From Squalus acanthias (Eukaryota): a DNA stretch of 64,000 bases. This document shows, in pieces, positions 1-52,752 of the stretch. A program made the translations under genes and the position numbers. The DNA is taken from contig JASTWF010001160.1 of assembly GCA_030390025.1 (NCBI GenBank), positions 1 through 64,000 of the forward strand. The letters are read 5' to 3'. The notes under the pieces were generated by a model, which was given only the letters and a program-made list of their open reading frames with translations, was not told the origin of the DNA and searched no databases. Numbering within the stretch: the stretch's first letter is position 1; each line of letters begins with the position of its first letter.

Positions 1-54
1 GTGTGACTTCTCACTTTTGTCCACCCCAGTCCAACACCGGCATCTCCGCATCAT
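1..54 (+). mobile_element. Penelope-like element family A, 3' tail (truncated by window start)
   Basis: gacttctcacttttgtccaccccagtccaacaccggcatctccgcatca is the reverse complement of the arm at ~48811-48856 of the hammerhead-bearing element. Confidence 0.7.
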
Positions 55-520
55 GGAATATATTCAAGACAGAGGTCGATAGATTTTTGAATATTAAGGG
101 ATTCAAGGGATATGGGGATAGTGCGGGAAAGTGGAGATGAGGTAGAAGATCAGCCATGATCTTATTGAATGGCGGAGCAGGCTCGAGGGCCAAATGGCCG
201 ACTCCTGCTCCTATTTCTTATGTAACCAGAGGACACAGATTTAAGATAATTGGCAAAGGAATCAGAGGAGAGGTGAGGAGAAATTTTGTTACACAGTGAG
301 TTGTTGTGATCTGGAATGCACTGCCTGAAAGGGTGGGGGAAACCGATTTAATAGTAACTTTCAAAAGGGGATTGGATATATACTTGAAAAGGAAAATATT
401 GCAGGGCTATGGGGAAAGCATGAACGTGGAATTAATTAGATAGCTCTTTCAAAGAGCCGGCACAGGCATGATGGGCTGAATGGCCGCCTTCTGTGCTGTA
501 AAATTCTATGATTCTATAAT
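55..520 (+). mobile_element. Two tandem CR1 LINE 3'-end fragments
   Basis: ORF2 C-terminal remnants (IFKTEVDRFL..KGI.GYG), 3' UTR stem-loop (ggagcaggctcg...actcctgctcc) and attctatg tail. Confidence 0.8.
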
Positions 521-1412: not shown

Positions 1413-1776
1413 GGGGGGGAAAACTGGCTTGCGCCACCTTTGTGGCGCTAACTTCACCAGGGCGCTACTTTTAGCGCCCCAAAAAAGTTAGTGCCCCCGC
1501 ACCCAAAATTGAATGGTAGCGCCCCAAGCAGGAGGCGGGGCGCTACTGGAAGCGCTCCCCCTCCTTCTTGGGGCGCTCCCTTTGAATATTCCAGCGCTAC
1601 GTGCAGCAGCGCCACGCACGCCACGGTACTGCAGGCCTCCCTCCCCTGATTAAAGGGGAGGGGCCTAGCGTAGCGTGCACCGGGGCCCTGCTGGACCACT
1701 GGGGAGTGAGGTGCCGGCAAAAGAGTCCGGCACTCGGGGTGCTAACGGGAGGCGCAAAGCTACCGAATTTTTCCCC
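1413..1776. mobile_element. Harbinger/PIF-type MITE
   Basis: TIR GGGG..AAAA / AATTTTTCCCC, TAA on both flanks, many GGCGCTA motifs; similar to 3180-3843 and 20120-20728. Confidence 0.8.
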
Positions 1777-2270
1777 TAAGAAGTTTGGGGTCATTCTTGC
1801 CTACTAGAGTACTCCTGGAGCAGCAGGAGGATTTGGCCGTACAGTCAGAGTGTTACTATTGTTTGTGGTGATTGAGTCGATCTAGAAGTGGATAGCCAGA
1901 ACTACCGAGCTCCATGTGTGCTCTAGTCTGCACCTGACAGAATTGAGTTCTCAGAGGTGACTAGTGTATGGGGAATGGTGAGGTGAGAGACATCCTTGAT
2001 CGGGTAGGGCCAAGGATGTTGAAGGTATGGGCAAGGCTATTGTGGACAGCACAATATTATGGCAAATGGCAGTCCAGAGGAGTAGAAGTCAAGAACTGGA
2101 GGTCGCATTTATGAGGGAATTAGTGGATTGGTTTTTCCAAGGGTAGACAGAGAAGATGGAGGAGGGCAGGAGGCGTAAATGAGGAAGCAGATAAGGAAAT
2201 GTTTGGATAGCCTTGTCAGTGATTGAGATCTCAAATCTCATTCTATGTCTGTATCCCTCTCTCTTTCTTA

Positions 2271-2885
2271 TAAGAACATAAGAACATAAGAAATAGGAGC
2301 AGGAGTAGGCCATTCGGCCCTTCGAGCCTGCTACGCCATTCAATGAGATCATGGCTGATCTTCTGCCTCAACTCCATTCACCGGCCCGATCACCATATCC
2401 CTTGATGCCCTTACTAGTCAGAAATCTATCGACTTCTGTTTTGAATATACCCAATGAATGAGCCTCCACAGCCCTCTGGGGTAGAGAATTCCAAAGATTC
2501 ACCACCCTCTGTGTGAAGAAATTTCTTCTCATCTCAGTCCTGAATGGCCTACCCTTTATCCTGAGGCTGTGGCCCCTGGTTCTAGACTCTCCAGCCAAGG
2601 GAAACATTCTCCCAGCATCCACCCTATCAAACCCTGTAATAATTTTGTATGCTTCAATGAGATCCCCTCTCATTCTTCTGAATTCAAGAGAATACAGGCC
2701 TAGTTTACTCAATCTCTTCTCATACGACAGTCCCGCCATCCCAGGAATCAATCTCGTGAACCTTCGTTGCACTCCCTCTATGGCAAGTATATCCTTCCTT
2801 AGGTAAGGAGACCAAAATTGTACACAGTACTCCAGGTGTGGTCTCACCAAGGCCCTATATAATTGGAGTAAGACTCCTTTACTCC
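2271..2885 (-). mobile_element. CR1 LINE, 5'-truncated (ORF2 C-terminus + 3' UTR)
   Basis: ORF 2368-2850 LVRPHLEYCVQFWSPYLRKD...; (taagaaca)n tail. Confidence 0.92.
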
Positions 2886-3179
2886 TTCTCTTCCTTCTCT
2901 CATTTCTTCATTTGCCTCTTTCTGTTTCACGCTCTGTCTTGTTGGTCCTCTAAAGCTGGAGTCTTATGGTTTCAGACAACAAATAGTCAAGCTCACAATA
3001 ACAATTTAGTTTAATAACTTCATTGCTCATCACTCATCATTTCATCTATTATATTCTATTCTAAACAGTTAACGACTCTGCTCCCTATATTTGTACCTAA
3101 TTAGCCTAAATTTAACCAAAACCACAGAGACATCTGGTTATCAACAGTAGTACTCTCTCACTCGGCATACAAAGATTAT

Positions 3180-3843
3180 GGCCGAAAAATTCGGTTGCTT
3201 TGCACCTCCCGTTAGCGCCGCCAACGCCTCCCACGAAATTCAGCGGGAGGTTAGCGACGGCAGTAACCATTAGCGCCCTGCGGCACTGCGCCGCCGGCGA
3301 TGACGTCATCGCCGTGCGCAACGCACTGCTCGCGCCCTGGCTGTGATCTTCGGTAGCGCCCCTGACTTACCGCCGGACGCTATGTCCGACGGGGTCAGGG
3401 GGGCCTACCTGCGGCAGGGGTGGCACTAATTAAAGGGAAGGTGCCGGGCAGCCATTTTTGTTGCTGGCCGCCTGCCAGCACCTGCCCCCGTTGCTGTCTG
3501 AAGCCGCCCCGCAGAGTGCTGGCTGCGCTCCGTGAGCCCGGCACTTCTCTTGAGTGCCAGGCTCTTTTACCGGCACGCCAATCCCTGGTGGCCCAGCTGG
3601 GCCCTGGGTTGCGCTGCGCAAAGCCCCTCCCCTTTAAGAAGGGGAGGAAGGCCTGCAGTACCGCGGCACGTAGCGCCGAAATATTCACTCGCAGCGCCCA
3701 AGAGGGAGGCGGGCGTTTCCAGTAGCACCCCGCTTCCCTCAGGGGGCGCTACCGATGAATTTCGGCCACAGGGGCGCTAATTTTTTTGGGGCGCTAAAGG
3801 CGAAGTTAGCGCCCCAAAGGGGGCGCGATTCAATTTTTCCCCC
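3180..3843. mobile_element. Harbinger/PIF-type MITE
   Basis: TIRs ggccgaaaaatt / aatttttccccc, flanks tat/tac, CpG-rich. Confidence 0.8.
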
Positions 3844-4084
3844 TACCTGTTTATCCATCCTGTTTCTACGCAACTGAAACAGAGAATTGTAGGCATATTA
3901 GAAGCGGAACATTGAACTTCGATGGGAGTGTAAAACAGGAGGTCGTGAATCGGCCACCCGCTATACACCCCGCCCAATTTTTATTTTTCCGTTGACATTA
4001 CCCTGATAACAGTCATGGTTTTACTAGTACAAGCATCCCAGTAATGTTTTCCATTCCAGGAAAAGTGCACAGCAAAAAAGAAAA

Positions 4085-4496
4085 GAAAATCTTGCATTTC
4101 ATGACTGCAGGACGCCTCAAAGCACTTTACAGCCAATGAAGTAATTATTGAAGTGTAGTCACTGTTGTAATGCAGGAAATGCCGCAGCCAATTTGCACAG
4201 AGGAAGATCCCACCAACAGCAATGTGATAATGATCACATAATCTGTTTTTAGGTGTTGGTAGAGGGTTAATATTGGCCACGACACCGGGGATAACTCCCC
4301 TGTTCTTCAAAATAGTGCCATGGGATCTCTTACGTCCACCTGAGAGAGCAGACGGGTCCTCGGTTTAACATCTCACCTGAAAGACAGTACCTGCACTGGA
4401 GTGTCAGCCTAGATTTTGTGCGCAAGTCCCTGGAGTGGGACTATGAACCCACAACCTTCTGACTCAGAGGCGAGAGTGCTACCACGGAGCCATGGC
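4085..4496 (-). mobile_element. SacSINE1-like (Deu-domain) tRNA-derived SINE
   Basis: Reverse complement of the full copy at 62742-63193. Confidence 0.85.
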
Positions 4497-22469: not shown

Positions 22470-23140
22470 TAAAAAAAAAAAGCAGAATGAGAAAATTACA
22501 ACTGGCTGGGATATTACTGCCAGGAGCCTTTTCATTGTTCCTTAGTTGATTGATTGATCCAAAAAGGTTATACTGTTAAAAAAAGCCTCATATTTATTTT
22601 CAGTCTCTTCACTTTTCTCTCTGCCTCTTCCGAAGGTGCTAACTTGTGCAATGTTTTTTAAATAGTTTCCATTTGGGGTTAACACAAAGGCCTAGAAATT
22701 CGAGGGTTTAGCGTTGGCCGTTAAGGCCCGTTTTGAAGGAAACATTTTGGACAGGTCGGCTGCGCTGCCGATGCCTGCGCTGCGCTGCCGATATTTAGAT
22801 TAGGCAGGTTGTGATGTCAATGAGTGTGCAATGCTCACTTGATGCCGGTTCTGCCATTTTCGCCGTCACCGCTCCACTTCCCGCCCTCTCTTAATCACGA
22901 CCAGCTGACCAAGTGTTCAGTAGCAGGAAGGAGCCTCCAGCGGCGATATTTAAAGGGATCATCATTAACAACTTGCAGCTGACATGGTTTTCAGTTTGAC
23001 TGGCTCTGTATAACTTTCTGCAACTCTTGCAGCTTTCTAAACTTGTTTCAAGTTCCTAAGGTGACAGGGAGTGTTGGTGCAAGTGGAGAATGCCTTGATT
23101 CTCATTTAAAGGCTTCTGCTCACACCACTTGCTCACAGTC

Positions 23141-24291
23141 ATGGGGGCTCTACTTGCAGTCCCCCTCGTGTATTTTTGGGAGACAGAGTGGAGACAGCGA
23201 AGATGCGCGCAGAGGGGGGAAGAGAAGGCCAGGAGGGCTATCAACAGGAGGCCTTACCCACCTAGGGTCTTCCAAGAGCGCTTCTCCTCCCTCCACTTAA
23301 GCAATGAGCAGTGTATTTGGAGGCTCCGCTTCACCAAGGAGGTGGGCGCAGAACTCTGCCACCTCCTGCAACCAGACCTGCAGCCTCAGACCAGGGCGAC
23401 CACGGCTCTCCCAGTGGCCCTCAAGGTCACCGTGGCCCTCAATTTCTTCGCCAGTGGATCCTTCCAGTCTGGAGCAGGAGGCATATCTAACATGTCCTAG
23501 TTTGCCATCCATCGCTGCATCTGGGAGAATACAGAGGCTCTCTACACCAGGAGAAGGGACTATGTTGTCTTCTCTCAGACCAGAGAGAAGCAGGAGGAGT
23601 GGGCATGTGGCTTTGCCAGGATAGCGGGCTTCCCCGTGGTGCAGGGCGTCATCGACTGCACACACGTAGCTTTGCGTCACTGCGCACCAATCCCAAGATG
23701 TTCCATAACCGCAAAGGCTACCACTCATTTAATGAGCAGTTGTTGTGCGACCACACCCAGCACATCATGATGGTGAATGCCCACTATCCTGGCAACAGTC
23801 ATGATGCCTTCATCCTGCGCCAGTCCGGTGTGCCAGCAATCTTACAGCCACCACATCAAACCCGATGGTGGCTGCTCGGAGACAAGGGCTATCCGCTCTG
23901 CACCTGGCTGCTGGATCTCCTCTGCAACCCCAGCACTCCTGCCCAGCACTCATATAATGACAGCCATGCTGCTACCAGGAACGTCATCGAGCAAACCATC
24001 GGGGTGCTCAAGCAACGGTTCTGCTGCCTTGACCGCTCGAGAGGAGCCCTCCAGTACTCACCGGAGCGGGTGTCCCATTCCATGGTGGTCTGCTGCATGT
24101 TCCACAACTTGGTCATCATGAGGACGCAGCCCTTTCCACCAGGGATTGCGGGACCACCTCAGGAGGGGGAGAGGGAGGAGAAGGAGGAGGAAGAGGAAGA
24201 GAACAAGGGTGAGGACGAGGAGGAAGGGAGGAGGCAGGCAGCAGATCACCGTTCCGGACAGACTGTCCATGAAGGCCTCATCAGACTCTGA
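23141..24291 (+). pseudogene. Harbinger DDE transposase (HARBI1-like), disrupted
   Basis: NFFASGSFQ, GVIDCTHV, GNSHDAFIL, LLGDKGYP, RNVIEQTIGVLKQRF; stop at 23498-23500 and frameshifts. Confidence 0.9.
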
Positions 24292-24458
24292 TTCCAGTGA
24301 ATGAGACCCCAGATCCCTGTTGCTCACCACTTCCCCATCATACCATCCCTCTGTCGCGGAACATCACAGCGTCCTCCTGGGCACAAAGCTGAAATGAGAG
24401 CCAACACAAAACAAACATTCCAAACAAAATTAATAAATTTATCAGAATCCAATCAACA

Positions 24459-26364
24459 TTACAAGATCAGCTTATCACCCTTGTGCAATCCCTTAGTGCC
24501 TGTCGTTCGTCTGCCTTTTCCTATTCTGGTGCTCTTCAGCAGTGCTCCCCCAGTGGCTGCAGCATGGCTGGTGGAAGGCTGCTGACTCTCAGTTGGGGAT
24601 ACTATAGATGGCCTTGCAGGACGACCTCGAGCAGCTGTGGGCTTCGAAGGCCCGGCTGTAGACACCTCGGCATGGGCGGGAGTAGTCTGGGCTGGCTGGC
24701 TGATAGGCAGCAGCAAGGGCAATGGCAGAGTGGCAGTGGTGGGAGTAGGAATGCTGTTATCCTGAGAAAGAACAGCAGGTTCTTGCTCCACGGAGCCACT
24801 GTCACTTCCCCCAGGGCAGAGCCTCAGCATTACTAGTAATTTGTTGGAGGACAGATTGCTGGACGGCTACGACGCCCTGCCAGCCCCTTTCGACACTCGT
24901 AAACCCAGCGACGATGGCAGCAGTCTGAGCCTACAGAAGAGCAGTCTGCGCTTCCACTGCAGCACTGAGATGTTGGGTCGCTTCCGCCTGTGCTGCAATG
25001 GAAGCCGCGACATCATCCATCACACCCAGCATCATGGCTGGGTCGGCAGGGTCTCTCCTGGAGTTGCCCATCATTTCCATCCTGGAAATCATGGGCCCCA
25101 ATCTCTGCACAAAGCCCCGTCCATTGTTAGAGCTGGACTCCTCCATGCTCCTTGGCATTAACATGATGCTCTCTGGCAGGCTTGGCATTACACCTAGCAT
25201 TTCCGTGTGCATGAGCATCACCCTTCTTCTGAAGGCTGCCCCATCGAGGTCATCATCTGAATCATGTGCAGCAGAACATGTGCGCAAACAAGCCCTCTGG
25301 GAGCTGGCCCAGAGCTACCCTTTCCCTCTGCCCTTGCTGCAGCCCACTCGTGCCTGGTGCCTCACCATGTGCAGAGCCCACCTCTCGACTACCCTCTACA
25401 TTGCCATTTTCTGAGCTGGTGTCTGCGAGTGTCAGATGCAGTGACGGTGTGTCTTCTTCTTTTCCTCCTTCACTCTCCTCCACAACATGAGGGTCAGGCT
25501 GGCCTGCTGGCAGTTCTTGGGTATCTGAAAGCAGAAAGGCACAAGGGTCGGGTTGTGGTGAAGGGAGGGGGTGAAGCAAGATATCCATGCATACACCATC
25601 AGCAGCTTGTAAGTGAGAAGAGATTGTGGGATGAGGGGGAAGTGGGATGTGAGAAGAAGGATTAGGAATGACCATACAGTCATTATCAGCAAGGGCTTCA
25701 ATTTCTCCTGTTGCCATGGCCTCAGTCACTGCCCCTCCAATGCTGTCGAGCACGGCTTCCTCCAGGTGGCTGAGGTTCTGTACAGCGGCTTGTCTGCCTC
25801 ATGTCTGCTGCTGCTCTCTCTGGTTGTGTGCTGCCTTGGTCTGCAAGAGAAAGGGAAGTGTGTCAGTGAGTGTAGCGCAATGTGTTTGGGCGATGTGCCT
25901 GCCATAGTTGAATAGCTGTCAGTGTGTGCAAGGTGTGAGATGTGGGTGTGAGTGTTACAACAGTGGTAAGGTTGTGAGAGTGAAGTGAATCCATGATTGT
26001 GAGGTATGAGTGGTGATAGGTAGAGATTGTTGGTAGGCGAGTGCTGGGGGTGGGGTGCATTGAGCAGTGTGTGAGGCTTGTGGTGCAGATGGTGGGATAT
26101 GGCATTTGCTGAAGCCTTCACTCACCATGGCCTGCCATGTGAGGTCATTAAACTACTTTCGGCATTGGATCCAGGTCCTTGGAACCACACTGGTGGCCGT
26201 GAAGGAGTTAGCTATCGCCTCTCAGAACCTTCTGCAAGTAGCTTGGATGGCTTCCTGCCACCCTACGGAAACAGTACAGCCCACCGTCTTTGAATGGCCA
26301 CGACCAAGGCCTCGGGTGCAGCATGCGAGAACCTTCGGGCTCTCTCTCTAGGTTGCTGAGCCAT
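24459..26364 (-). pseudogene. Harbinger Myb/SANT-like DNA-binding protein gene, three exons, disrupted
   Basis: ATG 26364 MAQQPRERARRFS; donor GTGAG after 26126, acceptor TTGCAG before 25840, donor GTATG after 25678, acceptor TTTCAG before 25524; ends ...HKGD. Confidence 0.7.
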
Positions 26365-41624: not shown

Positions 41625-41717
41625 CAAAAGTGAGAAGTCGCACAACACCAGGTTATAGTCCAACAGCTTTATTTGAAATCACAAGCTTTCGGAGCGCTGC
41701 TCCTTCGTCAGGTGAAT
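41625..41717 (-). mobile_element. Penelope-like family A fragment
   Basis: Near-identical to the arms of 48813-49024. Confidence 0.8.
41679..41715 (-). ncRNA. Minimal hammerhead ribozyme motif (family A)
   Basis: Minus strand UCAC-CUGACGA-A-GGAGC-agc-GCUCC-GAAA-GC-UU-GUGA. Confidence 0.7.
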
Positions 41718-48484: not shown

Positions 48485-48812
48485 TAGTTCTGGATCTCTT
48501 GGTGCTGTGGATTCAATACAGTTGTTTGGAAGTCATTCATGGAGATGTTAAAGTAACATTCTTCCTGTATGTACCCTAGACAGTGCGTATTGGTATTCAA
48601 CCATGGTGTGAACATCACAGCCAAACCCAATGCTCTATGTGGAGTCACTGGATGGCCATCAGGAGCAGCTTACTGGATGTTTATTCCCCTGTCTAGCACT
48701 GAGGTTAATAATAGTATCCAGCCACTCCCTTGGCTGAGATCAGTTAAACCAGCACAGGCCAGAGATTGAACCCGGGACATTCTTAGTCTATACCTCTTCA
48801 TTCACCCATTGA

Positions 48813-49024
48813 TGCGGAGATGCCGGTGTTGGACTGGGGTGGACAAAAGTGAGAAGTCGCACAACACCAGGTTATAGTCCAACAGCTTTATTTGAAATCA
48901 CAAGCTTTCGGAGCTGCTGCCCCTTCGTCACTTCACCTGACGAAGGAGCAGCCGCTCCGAAAGCTTGTGATTTCAAATAAAACTGTTGGACTATAACCTG
49001 GTGTTGTGCGACTTCTCACTTTTG
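48813..49024. mobile_element. Penelope-like family A palindromic mini-element
   Basis: ~88-bp inverted arms (48843-48930 / 48938-49024); flanking repeat ttcacccattga at 48801-48812 and 49025-49036. Confidence 0.8.
48933..48970 (+). ncRNA. Minimal hammerhead ribozyme motif (family A)
   Basis: UCAC-CUGACGA-A-GGAGC-agcc-GCUCC-GAAA-GC-UU^GUGA; stem I UCAC/GUGA; predicted cleavage after 48966. Confidence 0.72.
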
Positions 49025-49599
49025 TTCACCCATTGAGTCACTGGAGCAGTGTTTTAAAAACGTTCAGAGAAATGAACTAGCTCTGTTAAAGCGTATGTTA
49101 ACAGTGTTCGAGGGAAAGAGGTAGTTGCTGATTTGTAGGACTTAGGGGCTAATAGGAAAGTATGCTTACACGTATGAAGTACGGAAACTATTTTTTTCTG
49201 GTTAATTCCCATACCCTTGGTATAATTTGTTGTGGAGGGCACTGAAATAGGATTTATGTTCCCATTTGTGAGACGGTCATAAATGTCAGGTCTGCTTTCT
49301 ATGTGGAGGCTCAAACCGTATTTCACTGTTCTCTGTGGCATATCCCTCATTCAGTTGTTATTTTTGTTTGTTTAGTGTATTTTGTGCTTGTCAAGGTGAA
49401 TGATGACCATGCAGGGAGAGGAACATACTCCAAATTTGCATGTTTTCTACATCTTATCATCTTACACTCTCATTGTGGTTGATTAATGTGCTGGAGTTTT
49501 CTCTCGATTGCTTTTGGAGGTCAGGGAGGAATTATACAGAGTTGTTTGCTTTCTTTGTGGGTGGGGCATCTTTCGCTCTGTTCGTTCTCCCACTCAGGA

Positions 49600-49720: not shown

Positions 49721-50537
49721 CATCAAGATATTATGTAAATCAGTGTAAGAGAGTCCGTAATTAGACCAAACGGTGCACAGCATATTGGAAAAATTGGCTT
49801 GCTAGCGAGAACAGCCTTTTATTGTTCTGTGACTTCTATGTGTATTATGGAGGTTGTAAGTATGCTTGTAGGCACTTGTGCACGGCTCGCTTCATTGGAT
49901 GCAGTGCATTATGGGATATACATAGGTGTGTGAAATTTCCTGCTTGGACTCTAATCCTACAAATCTGTGGAATTTCCTAAGGCAAAGCTTGAAAATAATT
50001 TTTAAAAATGATTAAAAAAATAAAAGATATGGGCTGCAAAATTCATCTCCGTAGCACCCGTTTTCTTGGCGCTATGACTGCCGTTTTGGATCCAAAATGG
50101 CGTCCGTGGCACACGCGCACACTTCTGGTGTGAGTCGCGCTGGACGCCATCTTGGTCAGAGCGTTAGCACGAGCGCAGTGAGCATCTGACAGAAGTATGC
50201 AGAGTCGGCAGATCGTAACGTCAGTCAGCGTGGAAAGCTGATTTGACACCAGCGCTGCCATTTTGGAACTCAATGCTCCAGCTAACGCCCTCTCTTAAAC
50301 ACACACTGCTGAACATGCATTCAGCAGCAGGAAGGACCCCCCACCAGTGCTATTTAAAGGGATCATCAACTACTTAGTTGCTGATTGATTTCTGCTGGCT
50401 GTTGCTGCATTTGTAGACGTGTTTGGTGGTTTCTAGAGTTCTTTAATGTTGCTAAAGTCTACAGGGAGTGGTGTGGCAGGAGCTGAAGGACTTTGTCCTG
50501 ACTTCAAGAATTCCGCACAGGCCACTTGTTCCCAAGC

Positions 50538-51632
50538 ATGGGTGTGATAGTAGGCATTCCACTTGGCCTGCAGCATGACAGGGAGAATGAGCAGAGGCGA
50601 CACAGAGCAGGACAAGCTGCTGGAAGAGGGAGGTGGAGGAGGGGGAGAAGGGCACTCAGCCGGCGGCCATATCTGCCATGGGTATTCCAGGAGCAATACT
50701 CCTACCTGAACCTCAGCGAGGAACAGTGTGTCAGACGTCTCCTCTTCACTGAGGAGGTCCTCACTGAAATCTGCCACCTGTTGCAGGGAGAACAGCAGCC
50801 TCAGAGCAGGGCAAGGACCACATTGCCAGTGGCTGCCAAGGTGAACGTGGCCATGAGCTTATATGCATCGAGCTCCTTCCAGGCTGGAACAGACGATATT
50901 TGCAACAGCTCCCAGTTCGCCGTCCACTGCTGTATAAGGGAGGTCACTGAGGCACTGTATGCAAAGAGAGCTGAATACATTTCATTCTCTCTTGCTAAGG
51001 AGAAGCCGACAGAGCGCGCACATGGCTTTGCCACGATTGCAGGTTTCCCCATGGTGCAGGGTGCCATTGACTGCACTCACGCCGCATGTCAATTCAATGA
51101 TGTACTGCAACCGGGAAGGATTCCACTGCCTCAAATGACCATACTCAGCGCATCATGCAGGTCAGTGCTCAGTATCCTGGCAGCAGTCAAGATGCCTTCA
51201 TTCTGCGGCAGTCCACTGTACCATCTGCATTTGAGCCACCACTACAAACCAGAGGGTGGCTACTGGGCGACAAGAGCTTTCCGCCGAGCACCTGGTTCAT
51301 GACTCTGGTGCGCAACTCAAGCACACATGGCCAGCATGCATATAATGAAAGCCATGCTGCCACACGGAATATGATTGAACAGGCCATTGGTGTGCTTAAA
51401 CAACGCTTCCGCTGCTTGGACCTCTCTGGAGGAGCCCTGCAGTACTCGCTCTGCTGCATGCTCCACAACCTTGCCATCATGAGGGCACAGCCCTTGCTAC
51501 CAGGAATATGGTGACCATCTGAGGAAGAAGAGGAGGAGGAGGAGGAGGAGGAGGAGGAAGGGAGGAGGCAACCAACACAACCCCTTTCTGGCCGGGCTGT
51601 CCATCATTGATTCATCCGACTGCGGTACCAGT
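50538..51632 (+). pseudogene. Harbinger DDE transposase (HARBI1-like), disrupted
   Basis: RRPYLPWVFQEQ, GFPMVQGAIDCTH, SSQDAFIL, LLGDK, RNMIEQAIGVLKQRF; frameshifts and deletions. Confidence 0.9.
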
Positions 51633-51804
51633 GAACGCAACCCCAATTCCCCACTCACCGATAGTCCCACATCTCACCTTCCCTCTCTTACTGACAATCA
51701 CAGCATCCTCTTGGCCACAATGCTACAATAAAAGCCACCACAAAATAAACATTCCAAATGAAATTTATAAATCAAACCATTCCAATATTTCATTCAAAAC
51801 TCAG

Positions 51805-52752
51805 CTAATCCCCCTTGTGCATTCCTTTAGTGCCTGTCTTCCATGTGCCTTTGCCTGTCCTAGTGCTCCTATGAAGTGTTACCCCAGTGGCTGCAGCATG
51901 GCTGGTGGAAGGCTGCTGACTTTCTGTGGAGGAGACTGCAGATGGCCTTGCAGGACGACCTTGAGTAGCTCTTTGCCTAGTCGGCCCGGCTGCGGACTGC
52001 ACCGTCTCGGCATGGACGGCAGCAGTCTGGGCTGGCTGACAGCCAACAGCAAGGGCAATGGCAGAGTGGCAGTGGTGGGAGGACGAATGCTGTCATCCTG
52101 AGAGAGGACAGCAGATTCATGCACCACGGAGCCACTGTCACTCCCCCGGGGCGGCGCCTCAGCAATCCTAATCATCTGTTGGAGGACAGATTGTTGGACT
52201 GCTGTGACAGCCTGCAAGCCCCTTTCAACACTGGTAACCCCAGCCATGATGGCAGCAGTCTGAGCTTGCGTCAAAACAAGCTGAGCTTCCACTGCAGCAC
52301 CCAGTTGAGTGGTTTCTGCTTGTGCTGTAATAGAAGCTGAGACATTGGCCATCAGACGCTGCATGAGGGTTGGGTCCACAGGTGCGCTAATGGATCTGCC
52401 TACCCCTTCCACACTGAAAGGCTGGGCTCCAAGCTCTGCGCAAAGCCCTGTGCAAGGTTGGTGCTGGACTCCTCCATGCTCCTTGACATTGCACTCAGAC
52501 TTTCTGGCAGGCCTGCCAATGTACCAAGCATTTCATTGTGCACACCCATCAGCCTTCTTCTGTAGGCCACCCCATTGAAGTGCTCATCTGAGTCCTGAGC
52601 AGCAGAACTAATGTGCGACCTTAACCTCTGGGGAGATAGCACCTGCACTACCCTTTCCCCCTGCCCTGGCTGCAGCCACTTGTGACTCACCATGTGCAGA
52701 TCCTGCATTTATGCTACCCTCCAGTGCTGCCTTGGAGCCCGCTTTCTGGCAT
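51805..52752 (-). pseudogene. Harbinger Myb-like gene remnant (mainly last exon)
   Basis: Homologous to 24459-25400 (ESQQPSTSHAAATG...HKGD). Confidence 0.7.

Follow-up and report, generated by a model that had tools for sequence, protein, structure and literature searches.

A 212-bp palindromic insert in the window (the whole stretch of 64,000 nucleotides analysed here) consists of two head-to-head copies of the 5' leader, or pLTR end, of a Penelope-like element (PLE) that is Neptune-type by its linker. Across the genome, the 5' ends of such arms piled up at a single base 30 nt downstream of a TATA box, and many carried an additional G; each stub is therefore likely two joined cDNAs. We therefore propose, with a probability of roughly 70%, that both nicked target strands prime cDNA, that the cDNAs run off at a likely capped RNA 5' end, and that they are then end-joined. 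The insert belongs to a known class, whose layout has been published (PMC8557442, PMC3846280, PMC4209133; these and all other sources are cited from portions of their text).

Layout of the insert and its hammerhead motif

The insert was bounded by a 12-bp direct repeat, TTCACCCATTGA, which forms the target site duplication (TSD) and encloses 212 bp, in agreement with the original prediction of a 12-bp repeat around a palindrome of ~210 bp (Table 1). The inverted arms (48837-48930 and 48938-49031) were 94 nt long with 96% complementarity, and the earlier figure of ~88 bp was a fair one, because the arms measure 87 nt without the part that overlaps the right TSD. The palindrome folded at -174.5 kcal/mol (z -24), and 0 of 200 shuffles were equally stable. 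A tail of ~33 nt, which the first reading had overlooked, was found on the minus arm and none on the plus arm. Template coordinates follow the sense strand of the element, with 0 as the first base after the hammerhead cut.

Table 1. Features of the palindromic insert, in window positions
Feature	Position	Strand	Remarks
Left TSD	48801..48812	.	last 3 bases also match the element end
One-sided Penelope tail	48810..48842	-	template +59..+91; ends at the A of the parent ATG
Tailed arm	48810..48930	-	template -29..+91; core of the hammerhead lacks C3 and the 5' strand of stem I
Apex junction	48928..48930	.	TCA common to both arms (3-nt overlap)
Tail-less arm	48930..49024	+	template -37 (or -39)..+57
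Complete minimal type I hammerhead motif	48933..48970	+	by sequence, fold and descriptor (PMC4209133, in part); predicted cut 48966/48967
Right TSD	49025..49036	.	6/7 first bases match the template continuation

A complete minimal hammerhead had been proposed for the plus arm, and both the sequence and the predicted fold of the monomer arm, which reproduced the hammerhead helices, confirmed it. The motif comprised UCAC (48933-48936), CUGACGA (48937-48943), an extra A, a 5-bp stem II (48945-48958) and GAAA, followed on the 3' side by CUU, the cut and GUGA (48967-48970); the predicted cleavage point of the arm motif lies at GUGAUUUC. The core CUGANGA/GAAA/NUH with helices I and II was present in the plus arm only. 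On the minus arm the core begins at U4, so that C3 and the 5' strand of stem I are missing, as had been noted. The assignment of AAGCUU to stem III needed correction: only AGCU can pair, because A14 and U17 are core positions. A search of the isolated arm motif against Rfam returned no hammerhead match and 2 unrelated weak matches up to E 10; the hammerhead assignment is therefore based on the motif together with the minimal descriptor of PMC4209133. The metazoan PLE hammerheads described in that source share with the shark motif a short helix I, an extra base between 9 and 10.1, the G10.1-C11.1 pair, a palindromic 15.2-16.2 and no helix III of their own; cleavage of the shark motif itself is a prediction.

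Among 75 short inserts, intact motifs numbered 0 in 23, 1 in 43 and 2 in 9, so the combination of one intact and one clipped motif is not a design. The earlier idea of a built-in off switch stood in part: the ribozyme is predicted to be locked in the duplex of any read-through RNA that this copy might give, and the switch would be a predicted by-product. The insert has neither a TATA box nor an ORF and is a predicted dead end, its ribozyme being a passenger that the hairpin is predicted to bury; the window copy is probably ordinary and inert. Intermolecular pairing of hammerheads was predicted at -32.3 kcal/mol versus 2 x -12.9 kcal/mol, on which the suggestion that the motif may hold two RNAs together is speculation. 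A miRNA precursor was considered and rejected, the best Rfam score being 103 bits against a gathering threshold of 249, with generic long-hairpin matches only.

No long host-gene ORF and no piece of a Penelope ORF was recognised among the 15 window frames of at least 170 aa. A second tail-less arm of the same family lies at 41625-41716 (minus strand); it starts at -35 and is followed by a 5-base inverted piece, and no partner arm or TSD was found for it. The tailed end of a third copy, clipped by the contig start, occupies positions 1-53 (plus strand). Dense LINE-type RT fragments and other repeats occur throughout the window, including a 2.6-kb repeat pair (22797-25396 and 50201-52721) of 71% identity.

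The parent element and the population of inserts

A 32-mer of the arm occurred 31,854 times in its own 3.7-Gb genome, and long copies carried an RT-endonuclease ORF upstream of the arm. The proposed link to a full-length GIY-YIG/RT Penelope was established with a parent copy, L303, whose positions 1565-4255 (minus strand) hold an intact 896-aa Penelope-like ORF with RT and GIY-YIG. Its profile match to RVT_1 (E 9e-8) was above the cut-off, and that to GIY-YIG (E 4.5e-4, 20.9 bits) was under the Pfam cut-off of 22.6. The translation contained ADKGG, a DKG motif, and a CCHH zinc finger, YLIRCRKGCPGAWYIGET...H...H; the DKG motif and a CCHH with two cysteines between GIY and YIG are features of EN+ PLEs (PMC8557442). 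Between RT and EN, the linker CHGNLCKTC has the form CX4CxxC. Linkers of the type CX2-5CxxC mark Neptune and Nematis and are absent from Penelope and Poseidon in the cited portion of PMC8557442, which argues for a Neptune-type parent by a linker common to Nematis. The nearest named relatives of the L303 protein were shark proteins, up to 91% identical, and a search of PDB by sequence found no relative of the parent protein.

Arm sequence was found on both sides of the L303 ORF as direct pLTRs with a hammerhead, the upstream copy 5'-clipped and the downstream copy full. Arms matched both copies at 96-99%; the two copies differed in alleles, and the element sits in GC-rich flanks. The tail adjoined the L303 ATG and ended at its A. 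The arms are identified as the 5' leader, that is, the pLTR end, by their presence to either side of the ORF and by the tail ending at the ATG. Two loci considered as ORF starts, L038 and L042, were rejected, being one segmental duplication without a Penelope ORF. ORF pieces were also present in annotated isoforms of shark host genes (P0007, P0008, P0011, P0014, P0016, P0024 and P0025), either exonised or mis-annotated.

To describe the population, loci were chosen by the distal 32-mer only, together with ten random 10-kb stretches, and the top 30 matches of the window-based search were omitted from all counts because they had been selected for the window's apex. This sample contained 164 distinct insertions; 106 of them were inverted, and for 58 no partner was identified, in some cases through pairing failure. 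One tailed arm (+91) and one tail-less arm (+50..58) were present in 102/106 inverted inserts. An exact flanking repeat of at least 9 bp was found in 75/103 (65 of these 12-14 bp; 69% AT) and none in 26. Both arms started downstream of -45 in 75/103 inserts, with a median length of 206 bp. The inserts thus carry the inverted truncated pLTR, one-sided tail and TSD that form the EN+ PLE insertion signature. By a rough scaling in which two-armed inserts are over-sampled, short palindromes number around ten thousand genome-wide. Near-identical duplicated blocks on C1 (L101/L102, L061/L062 and L048/L050) carried the same insertion.

Ends of the arms and origin of the palindromes

We then assessed where the arms end. 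The results showed that 40/270 arms had their 5' end at -37, the A of ACTTCACC, corresponding to 40/145 of the arms reaching that base, versus 9 ends over the 25 positions -45..-69; 88/270 ended at -36..-20 and 70 past -70. Arms reading through -37 numbered 8,371, and other templates were therefore used too. The base at -37 lies 30 nt behind TATATAT and 3 nt upstream of stem I, and the distance from TATATA to this purine was 30 nt in 85/97 read-through matches, which have the context TCACTT and are not independent copies. Under a microhomology-weighted null the share at -37 would be at most 1.3%, compared with the 20.5% seen.

The base before -37, which is C or T in the parent, was G in 30/40 arms (null 0.31-0.36, p 6e-7), although 17 of the 30 can also be read as the last base of the partner arm. 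G was found at 9/9 blunt joints, at 8/14 joints with inserted bases and in 5/6 arms without a partner. By eye, the first 100 of 3,177 genome matches had G in 81 and A in 19. Inserts with both arms reaching -37 and 1-8 bases between them numbered 718, and the first 50 of these were also read by eye. The 27 multi-base middles included 8 that read C...G, which places a G on both arms, and 9 that read A...T, for the most part through repetition of ACT, and that a cap leaves unexplained; the 23 single-base middles were all C or G and fit either a cap or the parent's own -38 base. Of 20 arms at -37 with host-like flanks, a few only had a clear TSD beside the start. Contigs of four runs on the parent stretch had the same outer ends, and contigs cannot reveal start, strand or level. 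Of the listed records that contain the sequence, none was registered as RNA.

These end positions suggest that the A of ACUUCACC at -37 is a Pol II start and that the extra G is a copied cap, in which case A 48930 would be the start base of the plus arm in the window. In the window, the apex junction falls on A 48930 without an extra G, as would result from a start at -37 or from a read-through RNA of greater length. Full-length L1 and SVA copies are known to carry a 5' G copied from the cap (PMC2912911). A splice acceptor at -37 was rejected, there being no preceding AG and no fixed upstream exon. Short direct duplications also occurred at joints (ACT twice, TCAGGTG twice), as if the RT had re-copied its last template bases. 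They are reminiscent of telomerase-like repeat addition, and PLEs are the closest mobile relatives of telomerase.

A smaller peak was found at the ribozyme cut, where 355 arms started at 0, versus 66 at -4 and 94 at +7, positions with like patterns. Inspection by eye of the first 100 arms at 0 gave ~34 with the 4-nt stem I complement as microhomology and ~9 allele variants, and both arms started at 0 in five inserts (by eye). Microhomology weighting predicts ratios of up to 3.8 over -4 and 1.5 over +7, and therefore only part of the cut-site excess is explained. The comparison with these two control positions is suggestive of a minor class of cleaved template. In the cited part of the anole study, by contrast, no RNA ends were reported at the hammerhead cut, and cleavage was dispensable in vitro (PMC11167929).

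The original prediction had offered two readings, a stereotyped abortive Penelope insertion and a non-autonomous, ribozyme-defined hairpin element. Tabulated apex positions were far from random along the parent, and the abortive insertion holds. We consider it very improbable that the insert is a hairpin retroelement which is transcribed and propagated whole, its palindrome switching off the ribozyme, and this reading is already largely refuted. It would account for the tight size of the inserts, for the 248 copies of the window's exact apex and for four inserts that share an unusual apex and lie within 2.4 Mb on C1, but the 79 short palindromes had 59 distinct apex junctions. Of the 248 copies with this apex, 30 were examined: 17 had the intact ribozyme on the tailed arm and 11 on the tail-less arm, 2 could not be assigned, and 20 allele combinations occurred among them. 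Nine inserts carried a rare 3-nt deletion allele on both arms, with apex spacings that ranged from 18 to 1,566 bp (by eye). The insert also has no TATA box, nor does it contain the ORF bases required by the anole protein downstream of the start sites (PMC11167929). The varied apices, both polarities and one allele at many spacings indicate that each palindrome was made anew, usually from one source allele. Nor does the ribozyme define the apex, since the main stop lies 37 nt upstream of its cut, at the TATA/initiator position. A self-propagating SINE- or MITE-like element was rejected as well, no junction and polarity being shared as from a master.

Two further explanations concern how the arms were made. 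In one, insertion is two-ended, and the apex pile-up arises because the RT stalls where the hammerhead is folded, or from hot spots of microhomology along long RNAs. Ends were raised over the whole stretch -29..-41 beside the ribozyme, the region is rich in short self-complementary words and many arms read through, as this explanation would have it. We nevertheless regard it as unlikely, since the peak occupies a single base that lies 3 nt upstream of stem I, at initiator spacing from the TATA box; an RT moving 3' to 5' should halt at the 3' side of the fold, before passing it; microhomology weighting reduces the share at -37; and the extra G is left unexplained. In the other, the second arm arises by fold-back, with a single cDNA (or, as proposed in PMC3846280, an antisense RNA template) priming its own copying. 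Same-source alleles were indeed found on both arms in most inserts: concordance was 75/84, 13/13 and 35/52, versus 39, 6.5 and 27 by shuffling, and the rare deletion allele behaves likewise. Arm lengths were also correlated, with 18 inserts both long, 75 both short and 10 mixed (36 expected). Fold-back is improbable all the same. Apex loops of 1-2 nt in 18/75 short inserts are too tight for it, some inserts have -37 plus G on both arms, and either arm can be the longer (tailed 42, tail-less 29, equal 4, among the 75). The window arms differ at three sites with both states common alleles there, discordance at one site was 9/84 against a background of 1.7-6.2% per site, and target overlap at both outer ends exceeded the two-sided microhomology null (1.93 vs 0.96 and 1.17 vs 0.67). 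An antisense template, moreover, predicts no stop with G at the sense initiator.

These observations argue for two separately primed cDNAs, joined by short microhomology with trimming. The insert would be made at the target in one event, beginning with a staggered cut of ~12 bp. Both cut strands would prime cDNA synthesis within the leader, near +91 and +55, the cDNAs would run off the likely capped RNA 5' end 90-130 nt later, and the two ends would be trimmed and then repair-joined. The template may be either one RNA with two pLTRs or two RNAs; ends at -36..-20 would need trimming or stalling, and long insertions would need read-through RNA or a template jump. At L160:4008-4088, L243 and L252, the ORF start (first 27-61 codons) ran directly into a new piece of leader or pLTR, an arrangement suggestive of template jumping.

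Relation to known systems

Inverted-pLTR EN+ PLEs such as Pen2a_Av (PMC3846280, PMC8557442, PMC2377424) likewise have head-to-head 5'-truncated pLTRs, a one-sided tail of 30-40 bp, a TSD and junction microhomology. The shark arms differ in being mostly leader-long only and present in ~ten thousand copies. In the rotifer element, an Inr-like TCACT follows 20 bp after TATATATA, a spacing equal to that in the shark (PMC3846280). That source proposes self-priming on an antisense template, whereas the shark ends point to a sense, likely capped template. Opposite-strand hammerhead pairs 100-700 bp apart have already been mentioned (PMC4209133).

The Poseidon element PAc of Anolis carolinensis (PMC11167929) resembles the shark element in its AT-rich targets, in the hammerhead in its pLTR and in two internal RT starts bounding the tail, with both strands cut and extended in vitro. 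One of its start regions lies 85-92 nt past the hammerhead cut, and the shark tail ends at +91. Unlike PAc, the shark parent has a CX4CxxC linker and an ATG after the tail rather than in stem II, and its insertions show a small peak at the cut. L1 twin priming (PMC2912911) is similar in that both target ends prime, joining is by microhomology and a copied cap gives a 5' G; its two halves derive from separate regions of one RNA, whereas both shark arms copy a single stretch and poly(A) is lacking. Non-LTR retrozymes (10.64898/2026.07.22.740005) are also non-coding, hammerhead-bearing and PLE-derived. They form head-to-tail tandems with at least 2 intact ribozymes, unlike the head-to-head shark insert with one intact motif, and a retrozyme identity was rejected. 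The formation of inverted ends and the role of the hammerhead in PLEs are stated as open questions in PMC3846280, PMC8557442 and PMC11167929. Our search of the PLE literature found no account of start-site run-off, a cap G or a cut-site peak; subscription papers, Repbase and Dfam notes and supplements may contain one.

From the stub end statistics follow base-level predictions: the RNA should have its capped start at a single A, each insertion should involve two primed cDNAs, and the ribozyme should cut a minor class of templates. The shark stubs resemble retroviral strong-stop DNA, a short run-off product whose synthesis begins at an internal primer site. A broader reading, which we offer tentatively and think somewhat more likely wrong than right, is that the stubs are strong-stop cDNA pairs: a ten-thousand-fold fossil record that would map the capped start and two priming sites to the base, exclude antisense self-priming and record minimal-hammerhead cleavage in vivo. 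The dimer fold might then act as a retroviral dimerization signal does, keeping two RNAs from the same locus together for a dimeric RT. Double-stranded RNA in shark transcripts might also come from the many perfect hairpins.

The four C1 inserts of unusual apex, at 12.2-14.6 Mb (L220, L221, L225 and L227), had this apex in common including two extra bases, with different flanks and both polarities.
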